DNA of 64,000 nt, from contig CAZZHR010000002.1 of the NCBI GenBank assembly GCA_964654205.1, positions 65,800-129,799 on the forward strand, in the 5' to 3' direction. Each line of letters begins with the position of its first letter. Position 1 is the first letter of the stretch. The notes beneath the pieces are model-generated. The model did not search any database. It was not told where the DNA came from and was given only the letters and a program-made list of their open reading frames with translations. Source of the stretch: an uncultured Candidatus Saccharibacteria bacterium. GTDB taxonomy: Bacteria; Patescibacteriota; Minisyncoccia; Phycocordibacterales; UBA2100. The position numbers and the translations under genes are program-made. Below are positions 14,902 to 59,149 of the stretch, one piece after another.

Positions 14902-14911
14902 ACTCGATTAG

Positions 14912-21349: not shown

Positions 21350-21650
21350 GAGCGATGATGCCTGTGGCCGGACGCACGATTTATCTAATATTCTACTACT
21401 CTTTTCGCCAATTGGACGTGTATCGGACACTATTACGTGTGGACAAGCCTAAGCAGAATTTGTACCGGACATTTTTTACATTTTTTCCCACAAGTTCGTA
21501 TCAACGCACAAAAAATTCTCCGTTTTTTTGAAAAAAAGCCTCTTCACTACAACCTCTCACCTCTTACCTACCCCCCTCCTCCCGGCCGACTCGGGCATCC
21601 GAGGAGCGACGTAGAGCGGTATTCCGCGCGTGTGTGGCGCAGAAAATGAA

Positions 21651-28422: not shown

Positions 28423-28428
28423 GAGTGC

Positions 28429-28434
28429 ATTGTA
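28429..28434 (-). promoter_or_regulatory. -10 box TACAAT 6 nt before ATG 28422 (leaderless geometry)
   Basis: The minus strand reads gtTACAATgcactcATG. Confidence 0.45.
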
Positions 28435-28443
28435 CAAACTTGT

Positions 28444-28622: not shown

Positions 28623-30854
28623 CTAGAGTACTTCGGCCGTACCGGTACGTATCTGCTCAATGACAGGATCCGCCTGCTCTCCAATACCCGGGATAGCGCG
28701 CTTCGCTTCTTCGAGCGCCGCGATCGCCGCCGCGCGATTGCCGGAGAGGTAGTGTATCGCGGCAAGCGTGAAATAGAGCTGCGCATCCTGTGGATTTGCG
28801 CGGATGGCAGCTTCCCAAATCGGCACCGCGCGCACGAGCTGGTTGGTCGAGCGATACGCGGCGAGCACGCGCGAATCGGCCGCCTGGCCTTTCTCGACGT
28901 ATGGTGCGAGCACCTCTTCTCCCTCAGCCATCTGGCCGTTCAAAATGAGCCCAGAGCCGTAAAGCACGGCCGCAGTCGCGAATGACGCGTCGAGTTCGTG
29001 CGCCTGTTTGTAATACGAGAGCGCCGAGGCGGTATCGCCGCGCGCTATCGCGTTCTCCGCAAGCTGGAACATTATTGCCTGCTTTTTCGGAGAGTCTTCG
29101 AGCGCCCGTTCGTACGCTGCCTTCGCATCGTCGTGCAATCCATAGGCTCCATAGAGCACGCCGAGAAAGAGTGGAAAACGCGCATCCAGCGGCGACATGT
29201 CCTCCTGTTTCCGCATTTCCGATTCCGCGAGCGCAAAGAACTGCTGCTTCGTGGCCTCGGGTATGTCGAGCTGGCTCGCCTGTGCTGCCATTTGCGCGAG
29301 CTGCTCCCGGGCTTCCTGCATGCCAAATGTGCCGAGCTCAATCGACTGCCTCATGTACTCCAGATTCGTTGCAATCTGACCCTGCGGTGCGATCGCCTGG
29401 AGCAGAAGCCTGTTCGCAGCGAGCGGCTTTTGGTTGACACCCCATGCGAGGAAAAGCAGCGCGAGTGCACATGCGAGCGCGATGTACGGGATGTACGCAC
29501 GGTTGACTACTGCGCTCCAGAGCACTTTTGCTTCTTGCGCCTTACTGGCTCGATATGCGATAAACGCGAGCACCGTCCCAAAGAGGATGTAGCTTGTCAC
29601 GTTGTCGAAGACGAAGAAGTTGTGCACGAAGTAGCCCGCGAGGAGTCCCGTGAGTATCGAGCGCTCCGCTATCGAGAATCCATCCGGCCGTCCCGTCAAG
29701 ACACTTCGCCAGAGCGCGAATAGCGCAGCGAAGAATATCGAGAGATACGCGAGCAGGCCGAGCGTTCCCCCTGCGACCCACCAGTCGAAAATGATGTTGT
29801 GCACGCGGTCAAACCACGGCTCCTGGCTGTGCATGCGCGGGTCGTAGTACTTGTCGAAAACGAGCGCGTAATTCTCCTGACCCCAGCCCAAAATGGGCTT
29901 CTCCTGTACACCCTGCCATGCCATCTGCCAGTTGATGAATCGCGCCTTCGTCGTCGCGTCGTCGAGTGAGATGGTCGCAAGACGCTGGAGGAAGCCGATG
30001 CGCTGCACCCACGTCTGCTCTTTCACTAAGAAGAACCCGCCGATAATGACGAGGAGCCCTACCACCATCGCCGCCGACGCTCTCCATGCGTTGCGCGAAT
30101 TTTGAGCCTGCATGAGCACGAGCAGCGCGGAAAGGAGCGCGCCGCCGACGAGACCGAGAATCGCACCGCGCGTACCGGTGAGGAGAAGTGCGATGGTGTC
30201 GAGCACAATGATAGAGCCGTACATAAGCGAGATGCCGACGCGCTTTCCCTCGCCCCTTTCCACCCACTGCTGCGCCCAGAGCATCGCCGCGAGGAATATG
30301 TGGAACAGCATGTATGCAGCGAAGTAGATGGGGTTGCCGAATGTCGCGTCGATGCGGCCGCTCAGTCCCGCTGCTCCACCCTGACCGAGTGCAATCTGGC
30401 CGGTAACTTGGAAGAGGCCGTATATCGAGAGGTACGCCGAGACGCCGAGCGTCGTCCACCACAGCCACCGCCAGAGTTTCTCCGTCTGGAGCATCGAGGC
30501 TGCAACCACGGTGTAGACGAGGAGATGGGCAAGCGTCACCCACCCGTCCATGCGCTCGTAGTTGCTCCAGATGCTCTTAAAGGGGTATTCGCCGAAGATG
30601 TCGGCAAGCCCGATGATGGCAACAAATACAGCGAGTGCCGCGAGCACCCATGAGCGCCGGGGTCTATACGCGGGATTGACGAGTGCGAGCGCGAGCCACG
30701 CTGCCGCGCTTATCTCGACAACGATGCGAAAGGCGAAGTTTTTACCCGTGATGTAGGGGAAAAAGAGCGACGAAGTGACGAGGAGGCACACGAAGGGGAG
30801 CGCAAATACGCCAGCAAGGGCAATGAATCGGAGCGTCTTCTCAAGGACAGTCAT
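28623..30854 (-). CDS. O-antigen ligase (Wzy_C)-domain polytopic membrane protein with C-terminal TPR repeats
   Basis: Many TM helices. LLTGTRGAILGLVGG and FDRVHNIIFDWWVAGGTLGLLAY fit the O-antigen ligase core. The C-terminal 280 aa or so are TPR-like (AxxYYKQAxELD...). Trimmed to MTVLEKT, with TAGAAT 7 nt upstream. Confidence 0.78.
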   Translation of the reverse strand: MTVLEKTLRFIALAGVFALPFVCLLVTSSLFFPYITGKNFAFRIVVEISAAAWLALALVNPAYRPRRSWVLAALAVFVAIIGLADIFGEYPFKSIWSNYERMDGWVTLAHLLVYTVVAASMLQTEKLWRWLWWTTLGVSAYLSIYGLFQVTGQIALGQGGAAGLSGRIDATFGNPIYFAAYMLFHIFLAAMLWAQQWVERGEGKRVGISLMYGSIIVLDTIALLLTGTRGAILGLVGGALLSALLVLMQAQNSRNAWRASAAMVVGLLVIIGGFFLVKEQTWVQRIGFLQRLATISLDDATTKARFINWQMAWQGVQEKPILGWGQENYALVFDKYYDPRMHSQEPWFDRVHNIIFDWWVAGGTLGLLAYLSIFFAALFALWRSVLTGRPDGFSIAERSILTGLLAGYFVHNFFVFDNVTSYILFGTVLAFIAYRASKAQEAKVLWSAVVNRAYIPYIALACALALLFLAWGVNQKPLAANRLLLQAIAPQGQIATNLEYMRQSIELGTFGMQEAREQLAQMAAQASQLDIPEATKQQFFALAESEMRKQEDMSPLDARFPLFLGVLYGAYGLHDDAKAAYERALEDSPKKQAIMFQLAENAIARGDTASALSYYKQAHELDASFATAAVLYGSGLILNGQMAEGEEVLAPYVEKGQAADSRVLAAYRSTNQLVRAVPIWEAAIRANPQDAQLYFTLAAIHYLSGNRAAAIAALEEAKRAIPGIGEQADPVIEQIRTGTAEVL

Positions 30855-30867: not shown

Positions 30868-31686
30868 TCACGAACGCTTCTTGCGCGTCGGCCGGCCATG
30901 GTCGTCTTCGATGCGGACAATGTCCTCCTCATCGAAATCGCCGTATGCGACCTCCACGACGATGCCGCCTTTCTTCGACTCGAGCCTGTGTACCTGTTTC
31001 TTGCCCACACAGTACGTCTCGCCCCTTTTGAGCCTCACCTGCTCCGCTTTGCCCTTTGCATCGTGGAGGGTCGCTAAGGCATCGCCCTCTACAAGGAGCC
31101 AGCACTCGCTGCGACGATGATGGTATTGCAGACTCAACCGACTCTTGGGCTTTATGTAAATGGTCTTGAGATTCCAGTCCTTGCCACTGTCCCAGCCGTA
31201 GTATTCGCCCCACGGCCGTACTGTTTTCTTCACCGGTTTTGCCGCTTTCGCGATCATCCAGGACGAAGACTGTACTTTCCCTCCGTGACCAACTCGGTAC
31301 TTCCGCGCGATGCCGAGCTCGATGCACACAGAGTCCTCTGGCGTATTCGACTGTACCCTGTCGCCGCCATTGGCGAAGACGTGCGGGCGCAGCTTCCGGA
31401 GCGTGCGCGAGACACTCATATCGGGGTCGTTCTCCGCGTGGTCGGTGAGCACCACCTTGTCGACGAACGGGAGCGACCGTATCATCTCTGCGCGCTCTTT
31501 CTCCGGCATAAAAGCGAAACCTTTCTTAGACTTGAGCCAATTGTCATTGTTGATGATGACAACAAGCTTGTCGCCGAGCTTCTTTGCCTCCTTAAACATA
31601 CGCACATGTCCGATATGGAGTGGGTCGAACCCCCCCGACACAGCGACCCATCGAACCTTTTTGCTACCGTATCGTGCCTTGGCCAT
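30868..31686 (-). CDS. bifunctional cytidylyl/adenylyltransferase-like domain (RfaE-II / TagD type) fused to a cupin (type II phosphomannose-isomerase-like) domain
   Basis: N-terminal VAVSGGFDPLHIGHVRMF (HxGH nucleotidyltransferase). C-terminal RPWGEY...SLQYHHRRSECWLLVEGDA (cupin motif). Confidence 0.82.
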   Translation of the reverse strand: MAKARYGSKKVRWVAVSGGFDPLHIGHVRMFKEAKKLGDKLVVIINNDNWLKSKKGFAFMPEKERAEMIRSLPFVDKVVLTDHAENDPDMSVSRTLRKLRPHVFANGGDRVQSNTPEDSVCIELGIARKYRVGHGGKVQSSSWMIAKAAKPVKKTVRPWGEYYGWDSGKDWNLKTIYIKPKSRLSLQYHHRRSECWLLVEGDALATLHDAKGKAEQVRLKRGETYCVGKKQVHRLESKKGGIVVEVAYGDFDEEDIVRIEDDHGRPTRKKRS

Positions 31687-36650: not shown

Positions 36651-37913
36651 ATGAAACAACGCCTGCTGGGACTGATAGATCAGGCGAGCGGGTTGCTCCG
36701 CACGGATCTCCGCTATTCGATGTCGGGCGGCTTTTTTCTTACGGCCATGCAAATCACGAGCGCTATCATCAGCTTTGGCCTCACAGTAGCGTTCGCCAAC
36801 CTGCTCCCGGTTGATACATATGGTACGTACCGGTACATGCTCGCAGCATACGCCATCCTTTCCATCTTCGCGCTCCCAGGCATAGAGACCGCCCTCATGC
36901 GAGCAGTATCCGTCGGCAAGGAAGGTGCGTTCGCAGAAAGTCTGCGGACCAAATTCCGGTGGGGATTACTAGGCTCGCTCGCCGCCGTCTTCTACGCTGG
37001 TTATCTTTTCTCTCAGGACAGCATGGTAATGGCCGGCCTTTTCATTGTCGTTGCACTCATGCTCCCGGCGATGGAATCCCTAGCCCTGTACAGCACCTTC
37101 TTCAACGGCAAGAAGCTTTTTCGACAGTGGGCTGCGTTCGATATTGCCGCGCAGCTGCTGTCAGTAACGGCGCTCGTTGGGGCGATGATCGCTACGAAAA
37201 ACATCGTAGCGCTCCTGCTCGCCTACTTCCTGCCATACATCATCGTCCGCGTAATCGGAAGCTGGTACGTGAAGGAGTATCACGTGACAAGCGACACACC
37301 AGACAGCGAGCTCATGCCGTACGCTAAATCTGTTACATTCTTTCAAATCATTTCGAAGATTTCTTCCTCGCTCGACCAAATAGTCCTCTACCACGTGCTA
37401 GGTCCCGCGCAGGTCGCCATCTATTCGCTCGCGATGGCTATCCCGAATCGGGCTCAGGGATTATTCAAAATCAGCGGTATTCTCGCGTTCCCCAAATTCG
37501 CCGCCCGAACGAGCGGAGAAGTCGTGTATACGCTACCGAGAAAGATGCTTCTTTTCGGTGCCGGCATCATGCTTGTGTGTGTGGTGTACGTGCTTATAGC
37601 GCCGTACCTATTTGCACTTCTCTTCCCACAATATATGGCATCTCTCACCTACTCGCAGGTCGCGATATTCTTTACACTTTCTGCCGTGACCTACCCGTTT
37701 AGTTCGTTCCTATTTTCGCATAAAAGACTCGCGGAGAATTACGCAATCTCGCTCGGGAGCTTCTTCAGTAAAATTATTGCGCTCGCCGTATTCGTTCCTT
37801 TTTACGGTATCTGGGGCGCGATTATTAGCGTCCTAGTCGCGTCCGCTACCACAACCACGATATCGGTCATCGTACTGTGGCGCGAGCGACGCAGCTCTCC
37901 TGTCGCTTCCTAG
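36651..37913 (+). CDS. Wzx-type oligosaccharide/polysaccharide flippase (MOP superfamily)
   Basis: 420 aa, about 12 TM helices, with Polysacc_synt-like organisation. Confidence 0.78.
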   Translation: MKQRLLGLIDQASGLLRTDLRYSMSGGFFLTAMQITSAIISFGLTVAFANLLPVDTYGTYRYMLAAYAILSIFALPGIETALMRAVSVGKEGAFAESLRTKFRWGLLGSLAAVFYAGYLFSQDSMVMAGLFIVVALMLPAMESLALYSTFFNGKKLFRQWAAFDIAAQLLSVTALVGAMIATKNIVALLLAYFLPYIIVRVIGSWYVKEYHVTSDTPDSELMPYAKSVTFFQIISKISSSLDQIVLYHVLGPAQVAIYSLAMAIPNRAQGLFKISGILAFPKFAARTSGEVVYTLPRKMLLFGAGIMLVCVVYVLIAPYLFALLFPQYMASLTYSQVAIFFTLSAVTYPFSSFLFSHKRLAENYAISLGSFFSKIIALAVFVPFYGIWGAIISVLVASATTTTISVIVLWRERRSSPVAS

Positions 37914-38865
37914 CAATGCAGTACAAGGATATGTAGCGCTTTCTTGTCGGGAGCATGACGAGGTAGATGATGATAGCTGGTATCCCAAATAGAACCGCGT
38001 CCTTCATCGACGCAAGTGTCGCAGTAACAGATATGACTCGCTCCTTCGGACTTCCTATATGAATGTGGCCATCATTCCGGAGTGCGCGCTTGGTTTTGTC
38101 GACAAGACCGAAGGAGAATGCTGTGCCATAGAGGAACCGCAACTTCACAATAAGGTAACGCAGCCCACCGAAGTATCGAGTCATGTAGACAATTTCGAAC
38201 CCATGTCGCTCAAGATACATTTGAAGAGAGTGTCTGTCCCAGCACGTGAGGTGTCGGGGTGGAAGGTCGCCGCGCATGAGCCAGTCGGCATGGTGCCTAT
38301 AAGGCATCGACATGGCGACGTATCCCCCATCTCGAAGTGATTGTTTGACCGCTTCGATAAAGTCGGCGTGATTATCGATATGTTCAAACACGTCAAAAAA
38401 TGTTACGAGGTCGAACTTTCTCTCTGGATGCTTGCGCGCATACTCAATGATGTCCCCGAGCTCGACATTGGGCAGTTGAAAAAGTGTGTTCGCGACCCGT
38501 ACCGCATCTCGATCAAAATCCAGCCCATAGGGATCCCATTTTTGAGAACGTGCGTAGTACAGAAAATTGCCCGTCCCACAGCCGACGTCGAGCACGCGGC
38601 CATACATCGGTGCGAGTTTCGAGATAACTTTGAGATGGTTCCAATTCGGCTTCATAAGCGGATCTCTGTTGCGACCGGCGTATCGTGTATCTTTTTCGTA
38701 CCATTCAGCGCCTGGATTTTTCAAAGGGGACCAAAACCACGCATCGCATGTGCCGCAGTCAAAGAGCATATAGGTTATGCCACTATCTTCGTGTGTGCGA
38801 CCGCGCGGTCTCGCATCGGTTGCTCCGCATAAAGGACATATCGATGCAGGTACCGTCTGTGCCAT
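37867..38865 (-). CDS. class I SAM-dependent methyltransferase with an N-terminal Cys4 zinc ribbon and a C-terminal TM
   Basis: CPLCG...CGTC ribbon and the VLDVGCGTGNF motif I. Trimmed to MAQTVPAS, because the upstream part of the ORF is antisense to the radical SAM gene. Confidence 0.8.
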   Translation of the reverse strand: MAQTVPASICPLCGATDARPRGRTHEDSGITYMLFDCGTCDAWFWSPLKNPGAEWYEKDTRYAGRNRDPLMKPNWNHLKVISKLAPMYGRVLDVGCGTGNFLYYARSQKWDPYGLDFDRDAVRVANTLFQLPNVELGDIIEYARKHPERKFDLVTFFDVFEHIDNHADFIEAVKQSLRDGGYVAMSMPYRHHADWLMRGDLPPRHLTCWDRHSLQMYLERHGFEIVYMTRYFGGLRYLIVKLRFLYGTAFSFGLVDKTKRALRNDGHIHIGSPKERVISVTATLASMKDAVLFGIPAIIIYLVMLPTRKRYISLYCIARKRQESCVARATVR

Positions 38866-38976
38866 ACAAGAAGTGAATGCGTGACACTTTAGCATGAATT
38901 GAACCGAGTGGCTTAGTCTGATAAGGTTGCTCTGGATGGGCTCTTTGACAGAGGGCCGCAACGAAGGGGTGAAACG

Positions 38977-40740
38977 ATGAAGAAAAAGTTCATCCTCGCG
39001 GCTCGCTATTACAGCATCGAGCCGCTGGGGATCCTGTACTTGGCCGGTCTCGTGAAAGCGATGCCGGACTGGGACTGCAAGGTGGTGCTCGTTCGCGAGT
39101 ACAATTTTGAGGAGCTCTACGATGCCGTGCGAAGCTGGCAGCCTGACCTGGTCGGCTTCCAGATCTGGACGGGATACCACATTCCCGCCTTCGCCGCCTG
39201 CGACCGCATACGGGGTATGGGCGTGCCCGTCGTGATAGGCGGCCCGCACGCTACGTACTTCTCGGATGAATGCAAGAAGCATGCAGAGTGGGTAGTCCAA
39301 GGAAGCGGCTTCGGCCTCCTCCAGAAGATACTCACGGGTCTTGGTGGCGGCGTTCACTTCGACAAGTCGGGCCGAGAAGAGGTTTTCCCCCTTCCTGACC
39401 GCGACGTCGTCTACAATGCGTATCCCGAGTTGGGTAACAGCCCGATTAAGAGCATCTTCGGCTCAGTCGGGTGCCCAATGACGTGCACGTACTGTTATGC
39501 GCCCTCGTTCAACGAGATGCATGGTGGCTTCAAACTAACCGTGCGTCCCGTCGACGACATCGTGCGCGAGGCGAAGGCGATCATGGAGCAGTGGCCACTT
39601 CGAATGGTCTACTTCCAGGACGACATTTTCGGGTACAACATCCGTTGGCTCGAGGAGTTCTCCAAGAAGTGGAAATCCGAGGTTGGAGTCCCGTACCACT
39701 GCCAGATCCGATTGGAGCTGACCCGACACGACAAAGGCGATCAGCGCCTAGACCTCTTCGCTGAAGGCGGCTGCAGCGGCATTACGCTCGCGATAGAAAG
39801 TGGCAACGCTTTTCTTCGCGACCGCGTGCTCTTCCGCCACATGCCCGACGAACTCATCGTCGAGGGATGCCGGAAGATCATGGATCGAGGGATGACGCTC
39901 CGGACGGAGCAGATTCTCGCGGTGCCCTTTAGCGACACGGTCACAGACCTCGCGACGCTCGACCTCAATAACCGTATCAGACCTACGATGGCGTGGACAT
40001 CGATCCTCGCCCCCTATGCCGGGACGGACATGGGCACGATCGCGAAGAATTTCGGATTCTATGACGGCAACAACGATGACCTGTCGGAATCTTTCTTCGA
40101 CAGGAGCGTACTCCGACATGTCGAAGGAGGCCCGCGGGACATCGAGGCAATCGTTGAAAAATCCGGAACTCCCGCGAACGTGCACGCGGCGAAGCAACCG
40201 CTTTTGAGCCTTCGGGCGCACAGGCGCAACAGCTACGACGCAGATGTGGTCGACAAGACTGGATTGAAGCACGGCACTATTCGGTATCTGGACCAGGTCG
40301 ACAACGAGAGGTACTGCAGGGACACCGTTCGTCTTCAGCGCCTGTTCAACTGGCTGGCAATGGTGCCGCAGGCAGCGAAGCTCGGACGCATGCTTGTGGA
40401 CATTCCGGAGGAGGAGTGGACATGGGCACGCATCGGCCGCGAGAGCGAGAAGCACCTGCACGATACGGGCGTCGGCGACGTGGAGTCATGGAAGCGCGAG
40501 CTTGCACGCGAAATGTCCGTCGAGGTATTGCCCGAGCCGATCGCTCAAAACATTCCGTTCTTCGCGCACTTCCCTGCGGGAGGCGTGCTCGCGCGGAGCG
40601 TGGTGGAAAAAGATGTCCTGCGTTCCACGAGAACGACGGGCGAGGCACTCGATGAACTCGGGACACTCGCGCGCCGGCACCTCTTCCACTTCGGCCTCTA
40701 CAAGATCGAAGAAGGATTGGCGCCGATCGCAAGTCGCTGA
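38977..40740 (+). CDS. B12-binding-domain radical SAM enzyme
   Basis: An N-terminal cobalamin-binding-like Rossmann region (IEPLGILYLAG...VVIGGPHAT), then GSVGCPMTCTYCYAPSF (CxxxCxxC). GGGGTG Shine-Dalgarno (SD, ribosome-binding) sequence upstream. Confidence 0.88.
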   Translation: MKKKFILAARYYSIEPLGILYLAGLVKAMPDWDCKVVLVREYNFEELYDAVRSWQPDLVGFQIWTGYHIPAFAACDRIRGMGVPVVIGGPHATYFSDECKKHAEWVVQGSGFGLLQKILTGLGGGVHFDKSGREEVFPLPDRDVVYNAYPELGNSPIKSIFGSVGCPMTCTYCYAPSFNEMHGGFKLTVRPVDDIVREAKAIMEQWPLRMVYFQDDIFGYNIRWLEEFSKKWKSEVGVPYHCQIRLELTRHDKGDQRLDLFAEGGCSGITLAIESGNAFLRDRVLFRHMPDELIVEGCRKIMDRGMTLRTEQILAVPFSDTVTDLATLDLNNRIRPTMAWTSILAPYAGTDMGTIAKNFGFYDGNNDDLSESFFDRSVLRHVEGGPRDIEAIVEKSGTPANVHAAKQPLLSLRAHRRNSYDADVVDKTGLKHGTIRYLDQVDNERYCRDTVRLQRLFNWLAMVPQAAKLGRMLVDIPEEEWTWARIGRESEKHLHDTGVGDVESWKRELAREMSVEVLPEPIAQNIPFFAHFPAGGVLARSVVEKDVLRSTRTTGEALDELGTLARRHLFHFGLYKIEEGLAPIASR

Positions 40741-40763
40741 ATTCGTTGCTTCACAGTTCTTCC

Positions 40764-40794
40764 GCCCCGGGCTTGTCCCGGGGCCTTTTCTTTT
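40764..40794 (+). terminator. rho-independent terminator: GCCCCGGG/CCCGGGGC, then CTTTTCTTTT
   Basis: An 8-bp GC stem, a 5-nt loop and a T-rich tail, 24 nt after the radical SAM stop. Confidence 0.75.
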
Positions 40795-40809
40795 ACTACG
40801 ATTCCTGGC

Positions 40810-40815
40810 TATACT
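40810..40815 (+). promoter_or_regulatory. -10 box tggcTATACT 6 nt before ATG 40822
   Basis: The sequence reads ctggcTATACTcgccgcATG. Confidence 0.45.
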
Positions 40816-40821
40816 CGCCGC

Positions 40822-41259
40822 ATGACAAAGAAACACCCTATCACCGTGGTTGTATCCGGAGGTTTCGACCCTGTACATATCGGCCACGTCCGAATGTTTC
40901 GCGAAGCCAAAAAGCTCGGAGACACGCTTATTGTGGTCTTGAATAATGACAATTGGGTGAAGGACAAAAAGGGGTACGTATTCATGCCCGCCAAGGAGCG
41001 GAAAGAAGTTATTGAAAGCATTAAATATGTTGATAAGGTCGCACTCTCATCTCACATACCAGGCGACGCGGACAAGACCATCGCGCGTGAACTGAGGCGT
41101 ATTAGACCCGATATTTTTGCCAATGGTGGTGGTGCGAAGCATATGCCTGGTAATGAACTCGACACCTGTCGTGAACTCGGCATTCAACTCGCTTACGACG
41201 TGGGGGGCAGAAAGAAAGTTCAGTCGAGCTCGCGGCTCGTACAAAATTCAAGGCACTGA
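40822..41259 (+). CDS. stand-alone cytidylyl/adenylyltransferase-like protein, paralog of the N-terminal domain of 30868-31686
   Basis: [37 protein letters not shown] aligns almost residue for residue with [37 protein letters not shown]. Confidence 0.85.
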   Translation: [145 protein letters not shown]

Positions 41260-41288
41260 TTGACAATAGTGATGTAAATCTGCATAGT
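41260..41288 (+). promoter_or_regulatory. sigma70-like promoter: TTGACA, 17-nt spacer, CATAGT
   Basis: A perfect -35 hexamer and a plausible -10, upstream of the SD-led (GGGAGA) ATG 41330. Confidence 0.5.
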
Positions 41289-41329
41289 TGCACCGGACCA
41301 TCCCGAAACGATTGGTGTGGGAGACAATA

Positions 41330-42205
41330 ATGCTGACATTAGATGCGGCCACGCTGCTCTCGCGAGCTGCGTACGGCCAAGACATGTTCGTCACGGAAGC
41401 CCAGGTGGCAGAGCGCGGCGAGCGACTCGCGATCAATGTTCCGGAAGGGGCGCGCGTCGCCACCAGTCGCGCGGAGCGGTGGGAGCTCTCGGCTACGAAC
41501 AATCCGAAGTGGCGCTGGTCGCAAGGCGGTGCGCTTCCACTCATGCGTCTGCGCGACGCGATCGTCGCTCCGCTTCAGCTCTCGGATTCGACGTTGCCCT
41601 TGTACGCCAATCACCTTACGGCGGCGACAGGGCTCGCGAGCTCACCCGAGGAATGGGTCAATCCCAGACGCCTTATGCGTGAAGCGTTCGAAGAGATCGC
41701 GATCGCGACGCCGACCGGTATAGCGATTCCCATCTTCAACGACCCCGAACTCGACACGCTTTCCTTCGGCACATTACCTGGGGTTCTGTCGCTCATCGAG
41801 ATGCAGAGTGACTTGCCAGACCTCTTCCACCTCGGTGTGTTCAACCGCGTGCGGGCGCAACACCTGCCACTTCGCGGCGAACGCTCGATTAGCGTGAGTA
41901 TTTTCGGAAGGATCGTCTCGCACATGCGAGCGGTCGCGGTCTTGGACGAGACGACGCGCGGAGTCGATATTATGCATGCGTATCAAATCGATCTGCGTGC
42001 GTGGAGGCTCGACGAGATCTCGCTCTTTTGCGCCGAGTCACGCGACGGTGTGCCGACCAATAGTGAGATCGCTTGTCTCGAGTTCAATGACGACTTCGAG
42101 CCTCTGCGAATCATCCGGTCGTTCAAGACAGGCAAGGCGATTGAGGGCACGGGCTCGATGGAGCGGATCTCGCCGGTTCTGAGGGCGACGCTCGCATCGC
42201 TCTGA
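41330..42205 (+). CDS. hypothetical protein, possibly a degenerate Nudix fold
   Basis: GLASSPEEWVNPRRLMREAFEEIAI loosely resembles the Nudix box Gx5Ex7REUxEExGU, but the spacing is off by one. No other motif was recognised. Confidence 0.5.
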   Translation: MLTLDAATLLSRAAYGQDMFVTEAQVAERGERLAINVPEGARVATSRAERWELSATNNPKWRWSQGGALPLMRLRDAIVAPLQLSDSTLPLYANHLTAATGLASSPEEWVNPRRLMREAFEEIAIATPTGIAIPIFNDPELDTLSFGTLPGVLSLIEMQSDLPDLFHLGVFNRVRAQHLPLRGERSISVSIFGRIVSHMRAVAVLDETTRGVDIMHAYQIDLRAWRLDEISLFCAESRDGVPTNSEIACLEFNDDFEPLRIIRSFKTGKAIEGTGSMERISPVLRATLASL

Positions 42206-42223
42206 AGCACACGCAATCTTGCG

Positions 42224-42254
42224 AGCCCCGGCGACGCCGGGGCTTGTTCTTTTA
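42224..42254 (+). terminator. rho-independent terminator: AGCCCCGG/CCGGGGCT, then TGTTCTTTT
   Basis: An 8-bp stem, a 5-nt loop and a T-rich tail. Confidence 0.7.
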
Positions 42255-42285
42255 TATGAGCGCGCAATCGGCTACTATGCATGTA

Positions 42286-43419
42286 ATGAACAGAATCAGG
42301 GTCGCCATAATGACCGACGATTTTGATCCGCGACCAGAGCGGACTTTGTACTATCGCCGCCTCATTGAGCGCCTCATTGCATCCCCAGAGCTGGAAGTTA
42401 CCCTCGTCCATGCGAAAGCGGTGCCAGATGAACCGCTCTATGCGCAGACGCGCGAGGTCATCATGCCGCGTGTACAGCTGCCATTCGGTTCGCGATTCGT
42501 GGCATTTTTGCGCTACTGTTTGACCACCGAGGACCGATACGACATCGTGCACTGGCTGAAACCTCGTATTTTTCCTTTCTTCTGGCTTTTCCCAGCGAGG
42601 CGGATCATCGTTATGGCGCATGGCGGTGGTGACGTGTTTGTTCCAGGCATATGGACCCTCTCACGTCGCATATTTAACTGGACAATGATCTATTTTGGCA
42701 ACCGTATCCATACACTTATTGCAGTATCTGAGTACGCGAATAAAGAAATTGTGTACGCTTACAGAGCGCATCCGGAAAAAGTTGTGACCATCTATAACCC
42801 TGTCGATCCTCTGTACACACAGCCCTTTTCAGAAACTGTCGAGGCAGAGATCCGCCGCGAACACGGGCTAAGGGAGCCCTACTTCTTTTCGATAAGCCGA
42901 TTCCGCCTGCATAAAAATATTGGCCGTACTGTCGAGGCATTCGTGAGATACAGGACAGAACATCCCGAGAGTCGTGAACATCTTGCGCTCGGAGGTGGCT
43001 CGCTCGACGAGTTCGAGACGGCGTACGGCCCTCTTCTCGATTCCCCGTATACTAAGGATATCCACTTCCTAGGATATATCCCTTCCGAACATCTCCCAGC
43101 TCTCTACAGAGGCGCCACTGCGCTCGTATTCATATCGCTCAATGAGGGCTTTGGACTACCTGTCGTCGAGGCTATGGCCTGCAAGACGCCTGTCATCGTT
43201 TCGAATGTGACGTCGCTTCCTGAGATTGCAGGCGACGCTGGTGTCATAGTGGATCCGCAGAGCACCAGCGACGTAGCCGCCGCTATGTCCAGGGTCGCTC
43301 TCGATGAGCCATTTAGGAGGCAGCTCGTGGAGCGTGGGTACAAACGCAGTACATTCTTTACGTGGGACAAGAACTTCGCCTCTGTTCTCGCACTCTACAA
43401 ACGCGCTCTCTCTCAATGA
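42286..43419 (+). CDS. GT4-family glycosyltransferase
   Basis: EGFGLPVVEAMACKTPVIVSNVTSLPEIAGDAG (the EX7E region). Start moved past the terminator to MNRIRVAIM, with TACTAT 7 nt upstream. Confidence 0.88.
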   Translation: MNRIRVAIMTDDFDPRPERTLYYRRLIERLIASPELEVTLVHAKAVPDEPLYAQTREVIMPRVQLPFGSRFVAFLRYCLTTEDRYDIVHWLKPRIFPFFWLFPARRIIVMAHGGGDVFVPGIWTLSRRIFNWTMIYFGNRIHTLIAVSEYANKEIVYAYRAHPEKVVTIYNPVDPLYTQPFSETVEAEIRREHGLREPYFFSISRFRLHKNIGRTVEAFVRYRTEHPESREHLALGGGSLDEFETAYGPLLDSPYTKDIHFLGYIPSEHLPALYRGATALVFISLNEGFGLPVVEAMACKTPVIVSNVTSLPEIAGDAGVIVDPQSTSDVAAAMSRVALDEPFRRQLVERGYKRSTFFTWDKNFASVLALYKRALSQ

Positions 43420-43811
43420 CTATGGAACTCCGCACACCACTTCCCGAAGCTCTCGATCGACTCTCAATCCTCACACTCAAGCTCGAACACACACCCGAGA
43501 ATGATCCTCGACGTACGAGCGTGAAGAAGGAATATGATTTTTATCGCGCCGTGGTGGAAAGCTATCGCACGGATGGTACTCCTGTACAGAACGCGTGGCT
43601 CGATGAGCTTGTAGCGGTCAATCGCACATGCTGGGATATGGAGGACGCCATCCGTGAAGGCAAGGAGGGAGGCCTTACACTAGAGGAAGTAGGTAGGCGT
43701 GCGCTTGAACTAAGAGATCTCAATAAACAACGCATCTCCGTGAAGAATCGGATTGCGAAGGAGTGCGGCCTCGACTTTTTCGAGGTCAAAATACGGCACG
43801 CGTCTGAATAG
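43416..43811 (+). CDS. small helical protein resembling DUF4254
   Basis: VNRTCWDMEDAIRE and LRDLNKQRISVKNRIAKE resemble the DUF4254 pattern (N..LW..ED..R ... Nq.Rnd.Ie.iD), recalled from memory. ATGA overlap with the upstream GT. Confidence 0.5.
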   Translation: MTMELRTPLPEALDRLSILTLKLEHTPENDPRRTSVKKEYDFYRAVVESYRTDGTPVQNAWLDELVAVNRTCWDMEDAIREGKEGGLTLEEVGRRALELRDLNKQRISVKNRIAKECGLDFFEVKIRHASE

Positions 43812-43814: not shown

Positions 43815-44942
43815 CTAGGTTCGCTCTAACGCCTCTTTGACAATCTTGATCACGTAATCCACCTCGTTTTTCTTGAGCTTCGCATACATCGGGAGTGACA
43901 CAGTGCTGCCCGCAATCTTCTCCGCTATGGGAAAATCCCGTGTCTTGAATCCGAACTTCTTCTTGTAGAGCGTAAAAAGGTGGATAGGCGGATAGTTGAT
44001 GACGGCGCCAACACCGTGAGTATTCAAGTATGCGAGTACCGCGTCGCGCTTTTTCGCCTCCACCCAAATGGGAAAGAGATGGTATCCGTGAATCGCGCCA
44101 CGAAGCGCCTCCGGCATTTGAATAGCCAGATTCTTGAAACCGGCGCGATACTTTTTTGCCACCGCTTCTCTTTTTGCGCGCGTCGAATCCGCTTTTCTCA
44201 ACTGCGGCAAGAGCATGGCACCCTGTATATTGTTCATGTTTGCTTTCCATCCAGCCACGTTAATATCGTATGTCTTAAGCCCCGTCCTCTCGCGTTGGGC
44301 GAGCTCCGACGTGATGCCATGTGAACGCAATTGACGCATGAGCGCTGCGACATCATCGCTCTGCGTTGCAAACGCCCCGCCTTCGCCGCTTGTAATTCCT
44401 TTTGTCGCATAAAAACTAAAGCAGGCGCCGAATGACTTTTCGCCCGGCCGAATGCCATCGCGCTTAGCCTCAAGAGCATGTGCAGCGTCCTCGATGACAA
44501 TGAGCTTGTTCCTTTTTGCGATGGAAAGGATTTTCTTCATATCAACCATTTGCCCGTACAGATGGACGGGCAGTATGGCTTTAGTGCGCTTCGTAATGGC
44601 TTTTTCTATGAGGTCCGCGTTGATATTGCCCGTATGCGACTCAACATCAACGAAAACCGGTTTTGCTCCGGTCATCAAAATGACATTCGAACTCGCGACA
44701 AACGACATGGGTGTCGTGATGACCTCGTCTCCTTCCCCTACGCCGGCAGCAAGCAGCGCGAGATGCAACGCGCTCGTACAGCTCATAAGCCCGATTGCAT
44801 GTTTTGTGCCAAGGTATCGAGCGAGTGCCTTCTCAAACGCGTCCACGTCCGCGCCTGTCGTGAGGAAAAGTGACTGCAGCACACCATCGACGGCGGCGCG
44901 TTCCTTTTCTCCCACATTATGTTTAAAAAAAGCCACTTTCAT
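43815..44942 (-). CDS. DegT/DnrJ/EryC1/StrS-family PLP-dependent sugar aminotransferase
   Basis: FSFYATKGITSGEGGA (PLP Lys) and a family-typical N-terminal region. Confidence 0.9.
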   Translation of the reverse strand: MKVAFFKHNVGEKERAAVDGVLQSLFLTTGADVDAFEKALARYLGTKHAIGLMSCTSALHLALLAAGVGEGDEVITTPMSFVASSNVILMTGAKPVFVDVESHTGNINADLIEKAITKRTKAILPVHLYGQMVDMKKILSIAKRNKLIVIEDAAHALEAKRDGIRPGEKSFGACFSFYATKGITSGEGGAFATQSDDVAALMRQLRSHGITSELAQRERTGLKTYDINVAGWKANMNNIQGAMLLPQLRKADSTRAKREAVAKKYRAGFKNLAIQMPEALRGAIHGYHLFPIWVEAKKRDAVLAYLNTHGVGAVINYPPIHLFTLYKKKFGFKTRDFPIAEKIAGSTVSLPMYAKLKKNEVDYVIKIVKEALERT

Positions 44943-44943
44943 A

Positions 44944-45930
44944 CTAGACCCTTGATACTTCGGAGAATATCTGTTTGAAAACTTCTATATTGTAGTAGCG
45001 CAGATTGGCGTAGTCGAAAGAAGCATCGTAGTGTTCGTCCAAACCTTTCAGTATCGATGCCACGGAGCCAGTTGGTCTAAATTTGAGCTCTTTCTTAGCC
45101 TTTTCTATGGTCGCGGTGTAATTGCGAAGATCTGGTGAGTTGAGTATCTCGAGTGCTATCTCTACACCGTGCTTCTTTTTAAAGTGCGCTTGTATCTCTT
45201 CGGCTACCGCTCCCACTGTGACGTTGCAACTCGCAATGTTAAACGTACCAGAAACAGCTTGTGGTGCCTCGATAGCGAGGATGTACGCCTGCACGGCGTC
45301 ATCCATATCAAGAAGCGGGCGACCTATCTTGGGATTGTCTACGACTATCTTTTTTCTCAGGCGGGCATTTTTGTACATCGCATTCACAAGGAGGTCGAAG
45401 CGCATGCGCGGACTCCAACCTGATACGGTACCTTTCCGAATCGCAATGACCGAAAAATCTTTGCTCGCGAGAGGCATAAGTGCTTGATTCGCCTGCGCCT
45501 TGGACGCGCCATACGGATACGCAGACGTGAGCGGCGCGTTTTCGTCGCACACTTTCCCGTCGGCATTGCCATACACAGAACACGAATCGGCGAATATGAA
45601 TCGATTGACCCCCGCATGGAGAGCTGCAAATGCCGAATACGCTGGAACGCCAAGATTGCTGATAAAGTTGTACGCGCTCGCATACTGCGCCATCGGATCG
45701 CTCGAGAGACCGGCGAGAAATACGACCGTATCAAACCCTTTAAAAAAATCCTGCGGCACCTTGAGTACGTCGGATTTTACTAGTGTTACGGACTCATCGA
45801 GATGGTTCCCAAACCAGCACGGATCGACGACCGTGACTTTGTACCCGCGCTCAAGCAGCTCGGGAACAAGTCTGGTCCCGATGTATCCTGCCCCACCTAT
45901 TACGCACAGGCTTCGAGGGCTCTTTGTCAT
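44944..45930 (-). CDS. NAD-dependent nucleotide-sugar epimerase/dehydratase (SDR)
   Basis: VIGGAGYIGTRLV and YGASK (YxxxK). TATACA lies 6 nt upstream of the ATG. Confidence 0.88.
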   Translation of the reverse strand: MTKSPRSLCVIGGAGYIGTRLVPELLERGYKVTVVDPCWFGNHLDESVTLVKSDVLKVPQDFFKGFDTVVFLAGLSSDPMAQYASAYNFISNLGVPAYSAFAALHAGVNRFIFADSCSVYGNADGKVCDENAPLTSAYPYGASKAQANQALMPLASKDFSVIAIRKGTVSGWSPRMRFDLLVNAMYKNARLRKKIVVDNPKIGRPLLDMDDAVQAYILAIEAPQAVSGTFNIASCNVTVGAVAEEIQAHFKKKHGVEIALEILNSPDLRNYTATIEKAKKELKFRPTGSVASILKGLDEHYDASFDYANLRYYNIEVFKQIFSEVSRV

Positions 45931-45983
45931 GTTGGCTGTATAGTACGCACAATCGTGGTGTAAATCAAACGTACACGTCTCTC

Positions 45984-46649
45984 CTACTGTCCCGTGTCAC
46001 CCTGCTTATATATTTTTAGAATGTACGTGTGTCCATCGTGTGTAAAATGCGCAGGATATCGTTCGTTGTCGACCACTCGAAGCAAGTTGAATTGCTGGAG
46101 AATGGTTTGATGTATGTCGAGTTCGCTATCTTTGGATTTACGCTTCTTGTACCACGTACTTTCCCCCCGCTGCTCTCTCGGCTCATTGTGTGGATATGCA
46201 TCGATGAATTTAAGTGCGAGTTCAATGGTTTTTTGTCCTTGCGCTTGCTTCAGCTCTTCATTGAGTTCATGTCCTTGAAAATGAATAGTGTCCTTATAGT
46301 AGTACGGTCCCGAATCTACTTTTGCCACAGCCTCGAAGAGCGTTACAGGGATATCATTTTTACCCTCCAATATTTGCCAGGTCAGCGGTGAAAATCCTTG
46401 GCCGAGCGGGAGATCGCTCGGGTGAATCACGATGTTGTGCCTGTGTTTTTGTAGCGTGGACTCCGGCACAATCTTGTCGCAGCTAAGTATGAAGAGGATG
46501 TCGCCTTTCTCTATATCATTTTCCACCCCGAAAATTCTTACTGAGTGTCCTCGCGACTCGATGGCCAACTTAAGTTCAGCAATGTAGGGGTGTATCCAGC
46601 TATTTGGATTATCAACGAATATCGATATTGAGAGGTTTTGCTTTGCCAT
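45984..46649 (-). CDS. formyltransferase-domain protein (sugar N-formyltransferase candidate)
   Basis: NIVIHPSDLPLGQGFSPLTWQILEG matches the Formyl_trans_N motif (H.SLLP..RG..P). GATAAT lies 6 nt upstream of ATG 46649. Confidence 0.78.
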   Translation of the reverse strand: MAKQNLSISIFVDNPNSWIHPYIAELKLAIESRGHSVRIFGVENDIEKGDILFILSCDKIVPESTLQKHRHNIVIHPSDLPLGQGFSPLTWQILEGKNDIPVTLFEAVAKVDSGPYYYKDTIHFQGHELNEELKQAQGQKTIELALKFIDAYPHNEPREQRGESTWYKKRKSKDSELDIHQTILQQFNLLRVVDNERYPAHFTHDGHTYILKIYKQGDTGQ

Positions 46650-46659
46650 AGCGCAATTA

Positions 46660-47793
46660 TCATCGTCGCGAGCGCTTGTGGTCAAGGAGTTGCGAAAAGA
46701 GTCTCGCCAGTGCGGCCGCGGAGTTTTCTATCGTACGGTCGCCGTAGCGCACCCTTGCTTCTCGGGCGAGGCGCGCCATAAGAGCATCATCAGAGAGTGC
46801 GCGAACAAGCGCGCGGGCAAGCCCCTCTACATCTCGAGGCTCCGCGAGAAGTCCTGTTTCTTCGTGCTTTATGACGTCCGGGATACCGCCCACGTTCGAC
46901 GCCACGATGGGTAGATCTGAAAAGAACGCTTCCGCAAGTACCATGCCTTGCCCTTCCCACACCGAAGGAAATACGAAGATGTCCGCACTTCTCATAAGGT
47001 CTGGTACATCTTTGCGGGCGCCTAGGAAGATGACTCTGTGCTCAATGCCGAGTTCTTTTGCCTCCTGTTTGAGCGAGGCTTCAAGCCCACCTATTCCCGC
47101 TATTGCAAAATATGTGTCTGGCTTATCTTTAAGAACCAGCGGCATCGCCCTTAAGAGGTACGTATGACCTTTTTGTTCTATGAGGCGCCCCACTGTGAGT
47201 ACGAAATGCGCACCCTCTGGTATTCCGATTTCGCGCCGTATCTTTACCCTATCTATCGGCGTAGTGAATTTCGAAAGGTCGACCGCGTTCATTGATATTT
47301 CGTGGATTTTCTTTTGGGGAAAACCAATCACATCACGTGCGTAGACAGATATTGCCTGTGTTTGCGAGAGACACGCATCTGTACATTTAGATAAAACCCA
47401 GTCAGTCCAGATGTATTTTTTGGGAAGTGACGGGATGAGGTTCTGTACGGCCGTCACGATAAGTCGCGTACGAGCAAGGAGGGCTGCCAACCTACCGAAG
47501 AGATCCGACATGAACAGTTGTGTGAAGACGACATCAAATTTCTCCCTACGTATGTACCGATATAGTCGAAAGAACCCGGGTACGTCCCAAAAACCCCTGA
47601 AACCGAAATCAATGTATACGACCGACGGTTTCAGCAGGTCTTTGAAGAAAGAGTACTTTTGCTCGGTGCGGAGTGTCGCGACGGTCACATCTACGTCCTT
47701 CTTTTCTAGTTCGTTCGCGAAGTTTACGACGAGCCGTTGTACACCACCGGGCGCGAGCTCATTCGTCAGCAGAAGCAGCTTGAACTTACTCAT
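46660..47793 (-). CDS. GT4-family glycosyltransferase
   Basis: VFPSVWEGQGMVLAEAFFSDLPIVASNVGGIPDVI. Confidence 0.9.
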   Translation of the reverse strand: MSKFKLLLLTNELAPGGVQRLVVNFANELEKKDVDVTVATLRTEQKYSFFKDLLKPSVVYIDFGFRGFWDVPGFFRLYRYIRREKFDVVFTQLFMSDLFGRLAALLARTRLIVTAVQNLIPSLPKKYIWTDWVLSKCTDACLSQTQAISVYARDVIGFPQKKIHEISMNAVDLSKFTTPIDRVKIRREIGIPEGAHFVLTVGRLIEQKGHTYLLRAMPLVLKDKPDTYFAIAGIGGLEASLKQEAKELGIEHRVIFLGARKDVPDLMRSADIFVFPSVWEGQGMVLAEAFFSDLPIVASNVGGIPDVIKHEETGLLAEPRDVEGLARALVRALSDDALMARLAREARVRYGDRTIENSAAALARLFSQLLDHKRSRR

Positions 47794-51423: not shown

Positions 51424-51441
51424 GGCGACGTATACTAGCAA

Positions 51442-59136: not shown

Positions 59137-59143
59137 GCACGGT

Positions 59144-59149
59144 ATTATG
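59144..59149 (-). promoter_or_regulatory. -10 box CATAAT 7 nt before ATG 59136
   Basis: The minus strand reads cgCATAATaccgtgcATG. Confidence 0.4.

Follow-up and report, generated by a model that had tools for sequence, protein, structure and literature searches.

A candidate sugar-tailoring module with a B12-domain radical SAM enzyme and a divergent Nudix-fold protein in a Saccharibacteria surface-glycan locus

Genes and signals at the locus

We analysed a stretch of 64,000 nucleotides (the window) from an uncultured Candidatus Saccharibacteria bacterium (contig CAZZHR010000002.1), and in particular four genes that lie together in it and encode a class I S-adenosylmethionine (SAM)-dependent methyltransferase, a cobalamin-domain radical SAM enzyme, a small nucleotidyltransferase and a 291-amino acid (aa) protein with a divergent Nudix fold. 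An initial annotation of this DNA had called the same four genes on the same strands and, apart from minor corrections of start codons, this arrangement agrees with the open reading frame (ORF) map, the Pfam and NCBIfam comparisons and the raw sequence. The genes and signals of the segment are the following.

37867..38865, minus strand: class I SAM-dependent methyltransferase, 332 aa (Pfam Methyltransf_23, PF13489, E = 3.6e-25)
38866..38976, no strand: divergent intergenic region of 111 bp between the start codons of the methyltransferase and radical SAM genes (sequence read)
38977..40740, plus strand: radical SAM enzyme, 587 aa (PF02310 and PF04055 above gathering thresholds)
40764..40794, plus strand: intrinsic-terminator-like GC-rich hairpin (GCCCCGGG-cttgt-CCCGGGGC) and T-run, 3' of the radical SAM gene (sequence scan)
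40822..41259, plus strand: cytidylyltransferase-like HxGH nucleotidyltransferase, 145 aa, subfamily A (PF01467, 57.1 bits, cutoff 21)
41260..41288, plus strand: sigma-70-like promoter match TTGACA-17-CATAGT, 5' of the Nudix-like gene (10/12 positions match)
41330..42205, plus strand: predicted divergent Nudix-fold protein, 291 aa, with an extra beta-rich C-terminal half (stretched Nudix box, fold model)
42221..42257, plus strand: terminator-like hairpin (42221-42247) and T-run, 3' of the Nudix-like gene (sequence scan)

The most plausible start of the methyltransferase gene is the ATG at 38865; the mechanical ORF extends to 39357 and the gene callers place the start at 38769. For the nucleotidyltransferase we prefer the start at 40822 to that of the gene callers at 40894, because the latter would cut off the HxGH motif. 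The consensus scan found no promoter in the intergenic region 38866..38976. A terminator had been proposed behind the radical SAM gene, and a terminator-like hairpin (the hairpin proper being 40764-40784) followed by a T-run is indeed found there. The nucleotidyltransferase gene had been described as leaderless. No Shine-Dalgarno sequence is visible in its 5' region and a TATACT lies 5 nt upstream, which makes a leaderless mRNA plausible, although the consensus scan did not confirm it. The Nudix-like gene has a ribosome-binding site, GGGAGA, 8 nt 5' of its ATG. The promoter ascribed to this gene corresponds to the match at 41260..41288, which is only suggestive: such sites are no commoner in the region than in shuffled sequence.

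Pfam annotation, which covered practically all ORFs of the window from 100 aa upwards, places the four genes inside a single large surface-glycan locus that occupies 28.6-57 kb, in agreement with the sugar-cluster setting that had been assumed for them.

A conserved radical SAM family with a B12-binding-type domain

Residues 4-111 of the 587-aa protein match the B12-binding family PF02310 with 45.1 bits (cutoff 32.1), and residues 163-308 match PF04055 with 49.2 bits (cutoff 29.5), which makes the protein a member of the radical SAM superfamily. The three cysteines of its cluster motif CPMTCTYC (C166-x3-C170-x2-C173) are invariant over 45 family sequences spanning 31-100% identity. The AlphaFold2 model (predicted local distance difference test, pLDDT, 93.9; predicted TM-score, pTM, 0.90) contains five beta-alpha units in residues 3-119, followed by the barrel. 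The protein is thus divided into a B12-binding-type Rossmann domain (residues ~1-125), a barrel (~135-370) and a mainly helical, family-specific C-terminal domain (~380-587). In a Foldseek comparison with the PDB the top match of this model was AprD4 (E = 2.5e-18, 20% identity, target-normalised TM-score 0.68), followed by MgmA, TsrM, OxsB, TokK and CysS, and then by the methylthiotransferases MiaB and RimO. The alignments to the cobalamin enzymes TsrM, OxsB, TokK, CysS and MgmA cover both the Rossmann and the barrel domain. As judged from the model, the enzyme has the class B-type layout, with an N-terminal B12-binding Rossmann domain placed against the barrel. The cobalamin-domain radical SAM architecture claimed in the initial annotation, including an N-terminal fold of the cobalamin-binding type, is therefore recovered by Pfam, AlphaFold2 and Foldseek alike.

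Among 5.8 billion proteins searched there were 120 full-length homologues with 50-70% identity, mostly from Patescibacteria metagenome bins, and the annotations of the homologues assign the source organism to this group; a few are labelled Stellaceae or Pyrinomonadaceae (the neighbourhood of one Stellaceae-labelled homologue, P0008, was uninformative). A scan of GTDB species genomes identified orthologues in bins labelled Saccharibacteria, Adlerbacteria, Kaiserbacteria, Paceibacterota, Acidobacteriota and Polyangiales, as well as full-length or nearly full-length relatives at 31-35% identity in bins labelled Woesearchaeota, Nanoarchaeota and Methanosarcinales and in others labelled Deltaproteobacteria, Rhodospirillales, Nitrospirae and Lentisphaerae. 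The functional motifs stay unchanged even in relatives with 31% identity. Conservation is strong along the entire length of the family alignment, including the C-terminal 200 residues, for which neither Pfam nor the PDB gave a sequence match other than a non-significant one in the PDB (E = 0.34). In more distant B12-type radical SAM genes the similarity is confined to residues 1-380.

Cobalamin-contact motifs and the likely reaction

Three elements have been defined for the residues that contact cobalamin in OxsB, TsrM and TokK (PMC9204698): the beta3 loop has a downstream G-x-S/T-x-X, beta4 carries a Gly-Gly, and alpha5 starts with a Gly-Glu. We placed the corresponding positions by sequence and predicted secondary structure and counted them over the 45 sequences mentioned above. 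On the beta3 loop the family has G60-x-[QNHST]-x-[W/Y]64-T-G66-x-H68, which in this protein begins G60-F-Q-I-W64; G66 and H68 are invariant, G60 is found in 43/45, and position 64 is W in 35 sequences and Y in 10. In a weak hidden Markov model alignment W64 stands opposite Arg69 of TsrM, the residue under the cobalt. The beta4 loop carries an invariant G88-G89-P90. The Gly-Glu element before alpha5 reads [G/S/A]-[E/S/G/D]-G-F, with Glu in 17/45 sequences, including all DPANN-type relatives, and Ser in this protein (G-S-G-F). At the position of the classical DxHxxG loop the family has S-I-E15-P-L-G18, of which the Glu and the Gly are invariant. These motifs provide good but indirect evidence that the N-terminal domain still holds a cofactor, and we consider that the enzyme probably binds cobalamin.

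In line with the initial annotation, no gene for cobalamin synthesis or uptake was found among the Pfam-annotated ORFs of the window. A TP_methylase gene (62824-63549, minus strand) was considered as a corrin or cobalamin gene and rejected: its product is RsmI (187 bits, cutoff 168), a 16S rRNA 2'-O-methyltransferase within the Pfam family named 'tetrapyrrole (corrin/porphyrin) methylase'. Patescibacteria and DPANN archaea are generally regarded as unable to make cobalamin. If the radical SAM enzyme needs cobalamin, it is reasonable to suppose that the organism would scavenge it, and such use would add a vitamin dependency to these organisms.

A C-methylation of the GenK/Fom3 type, and hence a branched or methylated sugar, had been put forward for this enzyme. 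The comparisons do not establish this. The best NCBIfam matches are HpnJ (TIGR03471, 60.2 bits, cutoff 577.6), AprD4 (NF033070, 58.8 bits, cutoff 500) and PhpK (45 bits), all about tenfold under their cutoffs, so that the enzyme falls outside both the AprD4 and the HpnJ family. GenK, GenD1 and other class B sugar C-methyltransferases share its domain class and a sugar-tailoring role, but they show no specific similarity to it and are not among its NCBIfam or PDB matches. AprD4, the sugar 1,2-diol dehydratase, clusters with the B12 radical SAM enzymes and binds no cobalamin (PMC12931638), and HpnJ, a non-methylating member of the B12-domain class, is proposed to contract the ring of a lipid-linked sugar (PMC9204698). 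With AprD4 and HpnJ as closest characterised relatives, the nearest known relatives are therefore not methylases, and C-methylation to a branched sugar is possible without being favoured by them. A hopanoid role as for HpnJ was rejected, since the annotated ORFs of the window include no hopanoid genes and the score is tenfold under the cutoff; a phosphonate substrate as for Fom3 was likewise rejected, since neither phosphoenolpyruvate mutase nor any other phosphonate gene is among these ORFs. Most cobalamin-type radical SAM enzymes methylate, and for this reason C-methylation would be the single most likely reaction. Methyl transfer is on balance doubtful all the same, and a dehydration or rearrangement of the AprD4/HpnJ kind would be nearly as likely.

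The enzyme could in that case be a cobalamin-independent sugar dehydratase or rearrangement enzyme, acting for instance on a vicinal diol of a heptose side chain or ring, with no methyl transfer, no need for B12 and a Rossmann domain that serves only for structure or substrate binding. The reduced genome of the lineage and the lack of cobalamin genes in the window count for this possibility. So do the facts that AprD4 is the best match by sequence (E = 3e-16; profile E = 1e-14) as well as by fold, that it heads the NCBIfam list together with HpnJ, and that its own Rossmann-like domain has no cobalamin bound (PMC12931638). The sequence likeness to AprD4 (PDB 6FD2), an enzyme of apramycin biosynthesis that also acts on a sugar and also joins an N-terminal Rossmann-like domain to a radical SAM barrel, is however limited to residues 137-370 of the barrel, and the NCBIfam scores are low. 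Moreover, the N-terminal domain passes the Pfam B12-binding threshold, and the invariant residues lie at the loops that touch cobalamin in TsrM, TokK and OxsB (PMC9204698), so that contact motifs are kept in this family whereas AprD4 is cobalamin-free. The enzyme is also ~130 aa longer than AprD4, with a ~200-aa C-terminal domain outside the AprD4-similar region. On this evidence we regard a cobalamin-independent enzyme as unlikely.

The 291-aa protein belongs to a divergent Nudix-fold family

The 291-aa protein matches no Pfam or NCBIfam family, including PF00293 (NUDIX). The degenerate Nudix-like box that had been noticed in it is nevertheless real and conserved in its family. It reads G101-x5-E107-x9-R117-E118-A-F-E121-E122 and continues with -I-A-I; it departs from the canonical GX5EX7REUXEEXGU by an insertion of 2-3 residues (x9-10 for x7) and by the missing final Gly. 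Word-based searches gave only five homologues, all of 291-292 aa and with 48-52% identity, and 96 relatives emerged when 1.84 billion cluster representatives were searched exhaustively with a profile. Some of these are fused to HAD-type Hydrolase_3 or S6PP sugar-phosphatase domains, and one to a UDP-glucose/GDP-mannose dehydrogenase. In a 47-sequence alignment the family signature is S-G-x5/6-E-x9/10-R-E-[G/A]-x-E-E, with R117 and E118 each present in 46/47, E121 in 43/47 and E122 in 42/47. The protein of the window has R-E-A-F-E-E, and its four closest homologues have R-E-A-F-R-S.

The AlphaFold2 model built from this alignment (pLDDT 96.4) predicts the alpha/beta/alpha sandwich of Nudix proteins, and the top 50 Foldseek matches of the model are all Nudix proteins, none of them significant. 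Compared with Nudix hydrolases acting on nucleotide-sugars or ADP-ribose (YfcD, NadM-Nudix, NUDT22, GDP-mannose hydrolase), the protein differs in being missed by the Pfam NUDIX model, in the inserted residues of the box, in the extra beta-rich half and in the loss of the Glu-Glu pair from its nearest homologues. The family, with ~96 cluster representatives, is newly recognised and is overlooked by current Pfam and NCBIfam models.

The nucleotidyltransferase and its cupin-fused paralogue

The 145-aa protein carries the motif GGFDPVHIGH, with PVHIGH at residues 16-21, and belongs by score and motif to the PF01467 family. It scores 62.2 bits against rfaE_dom_II (HldE domain II, TIGR02199; cutoff 181.5) and 58.8 bits against TagD (TIGR01518; cutoff 165.4), and thus falls outside both. 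Among PDB sequences it is about equally close to ECT (ethanolamine-phosphate cytidylyltransferase), the archaeal RfaE-like 3glv, TagD, the cytidylyltransferase domain of Fom1 (5x3d, E = 1e-5) and HldC (5x9q). With HldE domain II or HldC, a heptose-1-phosphate adenylyltransferase, and with TagD, a glycerol-3-phosphate cytidylyltransferase, it shares the CTP_transf_like fold and the HxGH motif.

The initial annotation had called this protein a paralogue, which holds: over 135 aa it shares 56% identity with the N-terminal half of a second protein encoded in the window.

30868..31686, minus strand: nucleotidyltransferase paralogue fused to a type II phosphomannose-isomerase (PMI)-like cupin, 272 aa (Pfam CTP_transf_like and MannoseP_isomer)

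Such a fusion is unusual. It parallels the classical fusion of GDP-mannose pyrophosphorylase to PMI, and the fold of the nucleotidyltransferase differs. For the comparison of neighbourhoods, contigs or loci that carry homologues were given L-numbers (L001, L005 and so on), and in two of these, L009 and L022, the orthologous nucleotidyltransferase stands alone. The nucleotidyltransferases of these loci fall into two subfamilies. Type A, with GGFDPVHIGH, comprises the 145-aa protein, the cupin fusion and the stand-alone genes of L009 and L022. Type B has TNGCFDIIHVGH and is HldE-domain-II-like; it is found beside radical SAM and Nudix-like genes in L005, L006, L011 and L092 and is fused to kinases or GmhB in L018, L020 and L024. 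Genuine HldE-type enzymes thus flank radical SAM orthologues elsewhere, and the 145-aa protein belongs to a separate subfamily. It is thus a local paralogue standing in the place of a non-orthologous enzyme, which leaves its sugar uncertain.

Conservation of the gene neighbourhood

Close homologues of the Nudix-like gene are present on five contigs besides the window's own sequence (L005, L006, L007, L091 and L092), and in four of the five (all except L091) the gene lies directly downstream of a radical SAM orthologue. The radical SAM proteins of L005, L006 and L007 are 52-69% identical to that of the window. The Nudix-like gene is followed in L005, L006 and L092 by a gene on the opposite strand for a cytidylyltransferase-like protein of 149-164 aa, and in L007 and L091 by a Wzy_C gene. 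In L091 a transposase-like gene (positions 293-1462, faint rve match) lies upstream of the Nudix-like gene at the usual position of the radical SAM gene, and may be an insertion that disrupted the module. A distant member of the Nudix-like family in L088 (35% identity, tblastn) is surrounded by genes for phosphomannose-isomerase cupins, a Hydrolase_3 phosphatase and a phosphomannomutase, and no radical SAM gene is linked to it; the contigs of two further relatives, L089 and L090, are too short to judge such linkage.

By the initial annotation's own standard, its reading would fall if the four genes were never found together in related genomes. The radical SAM, Nudix-like and nucleotidyltransferase genes do recur together on other contigs, so that the reading is not refuted, and the combination of these with the methyltransferase was seen only in this window. 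We must consider that the adjacency has no functional meaning, four independent genes of a glycan cluster with promoters and terminators of their own having been shuffled together. The hairpins behind the radical SAM and Nudix-like genes and the promoter-like site before the latter would fit this, as would the uniqueness of the four-gene set, an association of the methyltransferase that is not significant (p = 0.11, see below) and the fact that the window's nucleotidyltransferase is a local paralogue and not the orthologue found elsewhere. Against this stand the recurrence of the radical SAM/Nudix-like pair in L005, L006, L007 and L092 and the presence of a nucleotidyltransferase beside the pair in 3/4 of these contigs. 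In the window the equivalent place is filled by a nucleotidyltransferase of the other subfamily, which argues that selection keeps this function adjacent. We thus find it very unlikely that the adjacency is meaningless.

Enrichment of neighbours was determined by tblastn and Fisher's test in 29 loci with full-length or nearly full-length radical SAM relatives (orthologue loci) and in 57 control loci with more distant B12-type radical SAM genes. Nucleotidyltransferase genes were found in 10/29 orthologue loci and 2/57 controls (p = 2e-4), PfkB kinase genes in 7/29 and 2/57 (p = 0.006), GT9 genes in 9/29 and 7/57 (p = 0.04), Wzy_C genes in 7/29 and 1/57 (p = 0.002) and genes for an MsbA-like ABC exporter in 7/29 and 2/57 (p = 0.006). 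GT9 is also the commonest Pfam family flanking the radical SAM gene, accounting for 11/129 genes around 24 orthologues.

The radical SAM gene recurs in two settings. In the first it is accompanied by genes of the ADP-heptose pathway and GT9. In L024 a GmhA gene (218 bits, cutoff 209) lies 38 bp upstream of the radical SAM relative, in L020 a gene for a bifunctional HldE (domain II 185 bits, cutoff 181.5) is found directly downstream of it, a gene for a GmhB-like HAD-IIIA phosphatase (158 bits, below the cutoff of 178) adjoins the nucleotidyltransferase gene in L011, and an HldE-domain-I-like kinase is encoded in the locus of L006. The second setting, found in several Patescibacteria, is the gene order ABC exporter - radical SAM - Wzy_C/TPR - MurB, which is present in L001, L008, L009, L010 and L022 and in part in L007; a Wzy_C gene adjoins the radical SAM orthologue in L001, L003, L008, L009, L010 and L022. 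As a separate observation, L024 (DPANN archaeon GW2011_AR15) contains at ~6550-7550 (minus strand), 3 kb from the radical SAM relative, a 333-aa ORF that starts with a HAD-type DxDGT motif and ends in an HldE-domain-II-type nucleotidyltransferase, and which appears to be a GmhB-adenylyltransferase fusion.

The second setting raises the alternative of a late-acting radical SAM enzyme whose substrate is a lipid-linked or already polymerised envelope glycan. The enzyme would then have its true partners in the MsbA/PglK-like ABC exporter and the Wzy_C/TPR ligase, and the nucleotidyltransferase and Nudix-like protein would be enzymes of precursor supply encoded nearby. The conserved gene order and the enrichment of Wzy_C and ABC exporter genes at orthologue loci speak for it, and the distant relative HpnJ works on a lipid-linked sugar (PMC9204698). 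What makes this reading improbable is that the Nudix-like gene adjoins the radical SAM gene in four of five contigs, that genes for nucleotidyltransferase, kinase, GmhA and GT9 are often found at distances of 20-1100 bp from it, and that such proximity is seen also in loci of DPANN archaea without any Wzy or ABC match.

A proposed nucleotide-handle model for sugar tailoring

We propose that the radical SAM enzyme, the Nudix-like protein and the nucleotidyltransferase constitute a sugar-tailoring module that uses a nucleotide handle within a Patescibacteria surface-glycan locus, and assign to this reading a probability of about one half. Starting from the domain architectures, folds, motif conservation and neighbourhood statistics described above, we infer substrate, cobalamin use, reaction type and hydrolase activity as follows. 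The nucleotidyltransferase would join a sugar phosphate, probably of the manno or glycero-manno-heptose type, to a nucleotide. The radical SAM enzyme would then form a 5'-deoxyadenosyl radical from its [4Fe-4S] cluster and SAM, probably with a cobalamin held in the Rossmann domain, and would alter an unactivated carbon of the nucleotide-bound sugar. The Nudix-fold protein, to judge from its fold and metal-binding box, may subsequently cleave or proof-read the pyrophosphate bond of the nucleotide-sugar. The neighbouring GT4 glycosyltransferases, together with the Wzx-type flippase and the Wzy_C/TPR ligase, would finally bring the product into the surface glycan. In this scheme the recurring trio narrows the candidate substrates to nucleotide-linked sugars of the manno or heptose type.

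The closest known logic, which the proposed module may resemble, is that of fosfomycin biosynthesis, where the substrate is transiently cytidylylated by the cytidylyltransferase domain of Fom1 before Fom3 acts and FomD follows (PMC8158854). Both systems would combine an HxGH nucleotidyltransferase with a B12-type radical SAM enzyme and a hydrolase that takes the nucleotide off again, and proteins of these three types are encoded next to each other in the window, L005, L006 and L092. The systems differ in that the Nudix-fold protein is unrelated to FomD and in that the Fom genes belong to an antibiotic cluster, whereas the genes described here lie in a glycan locus without phosphonate genes among the annotated ORFs.

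Several observations weigh against the model. The terminator- and promoter-like signals between the three genes mean that co-transcription is not required, and 9/29 orthologue loci contain none of the tested partners. The replacement of Glu-Glu by Arg-Ser in the four closest homologues of the Nudix-like protein makes hydrolase activity doubtful in that subgroup. The window's nucleotidyltransferase, being only 34-38% identical to the HldE-domain-II-type enzymes of L005, L006 and L011 and belonging to a separate subfamily, is not their orthologue. Genes for GT9, HldE kinase, GmhA and GmhB are absent from the window, as are those for an MsbA-like exporter and MurB, so that the link to heptose comes from the relatives and not from this segment. 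A classical ADP-heptose pathway in the window was rejected, its PfkB gene (112-1101) best matching a ribokinase-like kinase. AprD4, the best match of the radical SAM enzyme by sequence and structure, neither binds cobalamin (PMC12931638) nor methylates. Finally, literature searches on radical SAM enzymes together with heptose, Patescibacteria or the candidate phyla radiation returned nothing on this radical SAM family, and they yielded no biochemical data on any member of it or of the Nudix-like family; a Campylobacter capsule paper that names a radical SAM gene proved irrelevant.

B12-domain radical SAM enzymes that tailor sugars are a well-known kind of enzyme, and the computational evidence suggests that the one described here is an uncharacterised variant within that class. 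A further-reaching claim, that the 587-aa protein founds a cobalamin-type radical SAM family common to the ultra-small episymbionts of both domains, Patescibacteria and DPANN archaea, which performs a new modification of ADP-heptose-type sugars with a dedicated Nudix-fold partner, seems to us unlikely to hold in full. If it did, a new modification such as C-methylation, chain extension or deoxygenation would be at hand, along with a surface-glycan synthesis that relies on scavenged corrinoid. The surface glycans of Patescibacteria and DPANN archaea, organisms that grow attached to other cells, have hardly been studied. The occurrence of a conserved radical SAM family in envelope-glycan and ADP-heptose loci of these organisms points to sugar modification at the interface with the host.

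The divergent methyltransferase is at best a loose partner

The methyltransferase matches PF13489 with 89 bits (cutoff 27), which makes it a class I enzyme. It has the two features given in the initial annotation, namely an N-terminal Cys4 zinc ribbon, C10xxC13...C37xxC40 (CxxC-x23-CxxC), and a C-terminal hydrophobic helix. The latter corresponds to the 19-mer MKDAVLFGIPAIIIYLVML (residues 287-305), in which the Kyte-Doolittle mean reaches its maximum of 1.96. Homologues that keep the ribbon occur in L029, where the gene (31% identity over 230 aa) is divergent from that of the radical SAM relative, and in L008 and L022, where it lies 2.2 kb upstream. A ribbon methyltransferase near the radical SAM gene was found in 6/29 orthologue loci and 5/57 controls (Fisher p = 0.11), and the connection of the methyltransferase with the radical SAM enzyme is thus loose at best.

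The surrounding glycan locus and other features of the window

Three further genes of the locus bear on the comparisons made above.

28623..30854, minus strand: Wzy_C (O-antigen-ligase-like) membrane protein with C-terminal TPR repeats (Pfam Wzy_C and TPR)
42286..43419, plus strand: GT4-family glycosyltransferase (Pfam Glycos_transf_1, E = 6e-28)
43416..43811, plus strand: small protein, weakly DUF4254/DUF6165-like (sub-threshold Pfam matches)

The probable start of the GT4 gene is the ATG at 42286, the mechanical ORF beginning at 42244; the start of the small protein was read from the translation, its mechanical ORF beginning at 43362. Both genes have orthologues around the radical SAM gene of L017, where a GT4 gene (43% identity over 375 aa) ends 115 bp before it and a gene for the small DUF protein (11911-12387; 46% identity over 127 aa) follows directly after it. 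The GT4 enzyme and the small protein may hence share a functional unit with the radical SAM enzyme.

The glycan locus starts with the Wzy_C/TPR ligase-like protein and the nucleotidyltransferase-PMI-cupin fusion and continues with a GT2, an epimerase, an RGP-like transferase, a small SMR-like membrane protein and a PMT_2/ArnT-like transferase. The Wzx flippase precedes the four genes, which are followed by the GT4 and the small protein, then by a DegT aminotransferase, an epimerase and a formyltransferase, and at the end by several more GT4s, another methyltransferase, a UDP-glucose-dehydrogenase/GT4 fusion and more epimerases. The DegT-family aminotransferase, the epimerase/dehydratase of the short-chain dehydrogenase/reductase type and the formyltransferase-like protein are encoded in tandem at 43815-46685 (minus strand), which suggests synthesis of an N-formylated amino sugar. 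The fusion near the end (49441-51441, minus strand; 666 aa) joins the N-terminal and central domains of a UDP-glucose/GDP-mannose dehydrogenase to a GT4 glycosyltransferase.

Outside the glycan locus the window encodes enzymes of the non-oxidative pentose-phosphate pathway, GAPDH, SecA, GatB, giant surface proteins and an ATPase resembling the coupling proteins of type IV secretion systems. Rfam and tRNA scans of the window detected no RNA genes. The sugar-phosphate genes at 112-7160 specify a PfkB kinase, a split transketolase, ribulose-phosphate 3-epimerase, RpiB and GAPDH; pentose-phosphate enzymes of this kind could yield sedoheptulose 7-phosphate, a heptose precursor. Two giant ORFs occupy 10115-21430 (minus strand), one of 1375 aa with SPRY and DUF7483 domains and one of 2172 aa with only a weak HTH_17 match, and an IS200-like Y1 transposase gene (14239-14901) lies between them. 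A protein with a PaaX central/Cas2-like domain is encoded at 27787-28437 (minus strand), between the SecA and Wzy_C/TPR genes. At 57928-61079 (minus strand) a gene for a protein with ComEA-like HHH_3 and PKD domains adjoins that for the TrwB/TraG-like type IV coupling ATPase, and these genes may belong to machinery for DNA uptake or conjugation.

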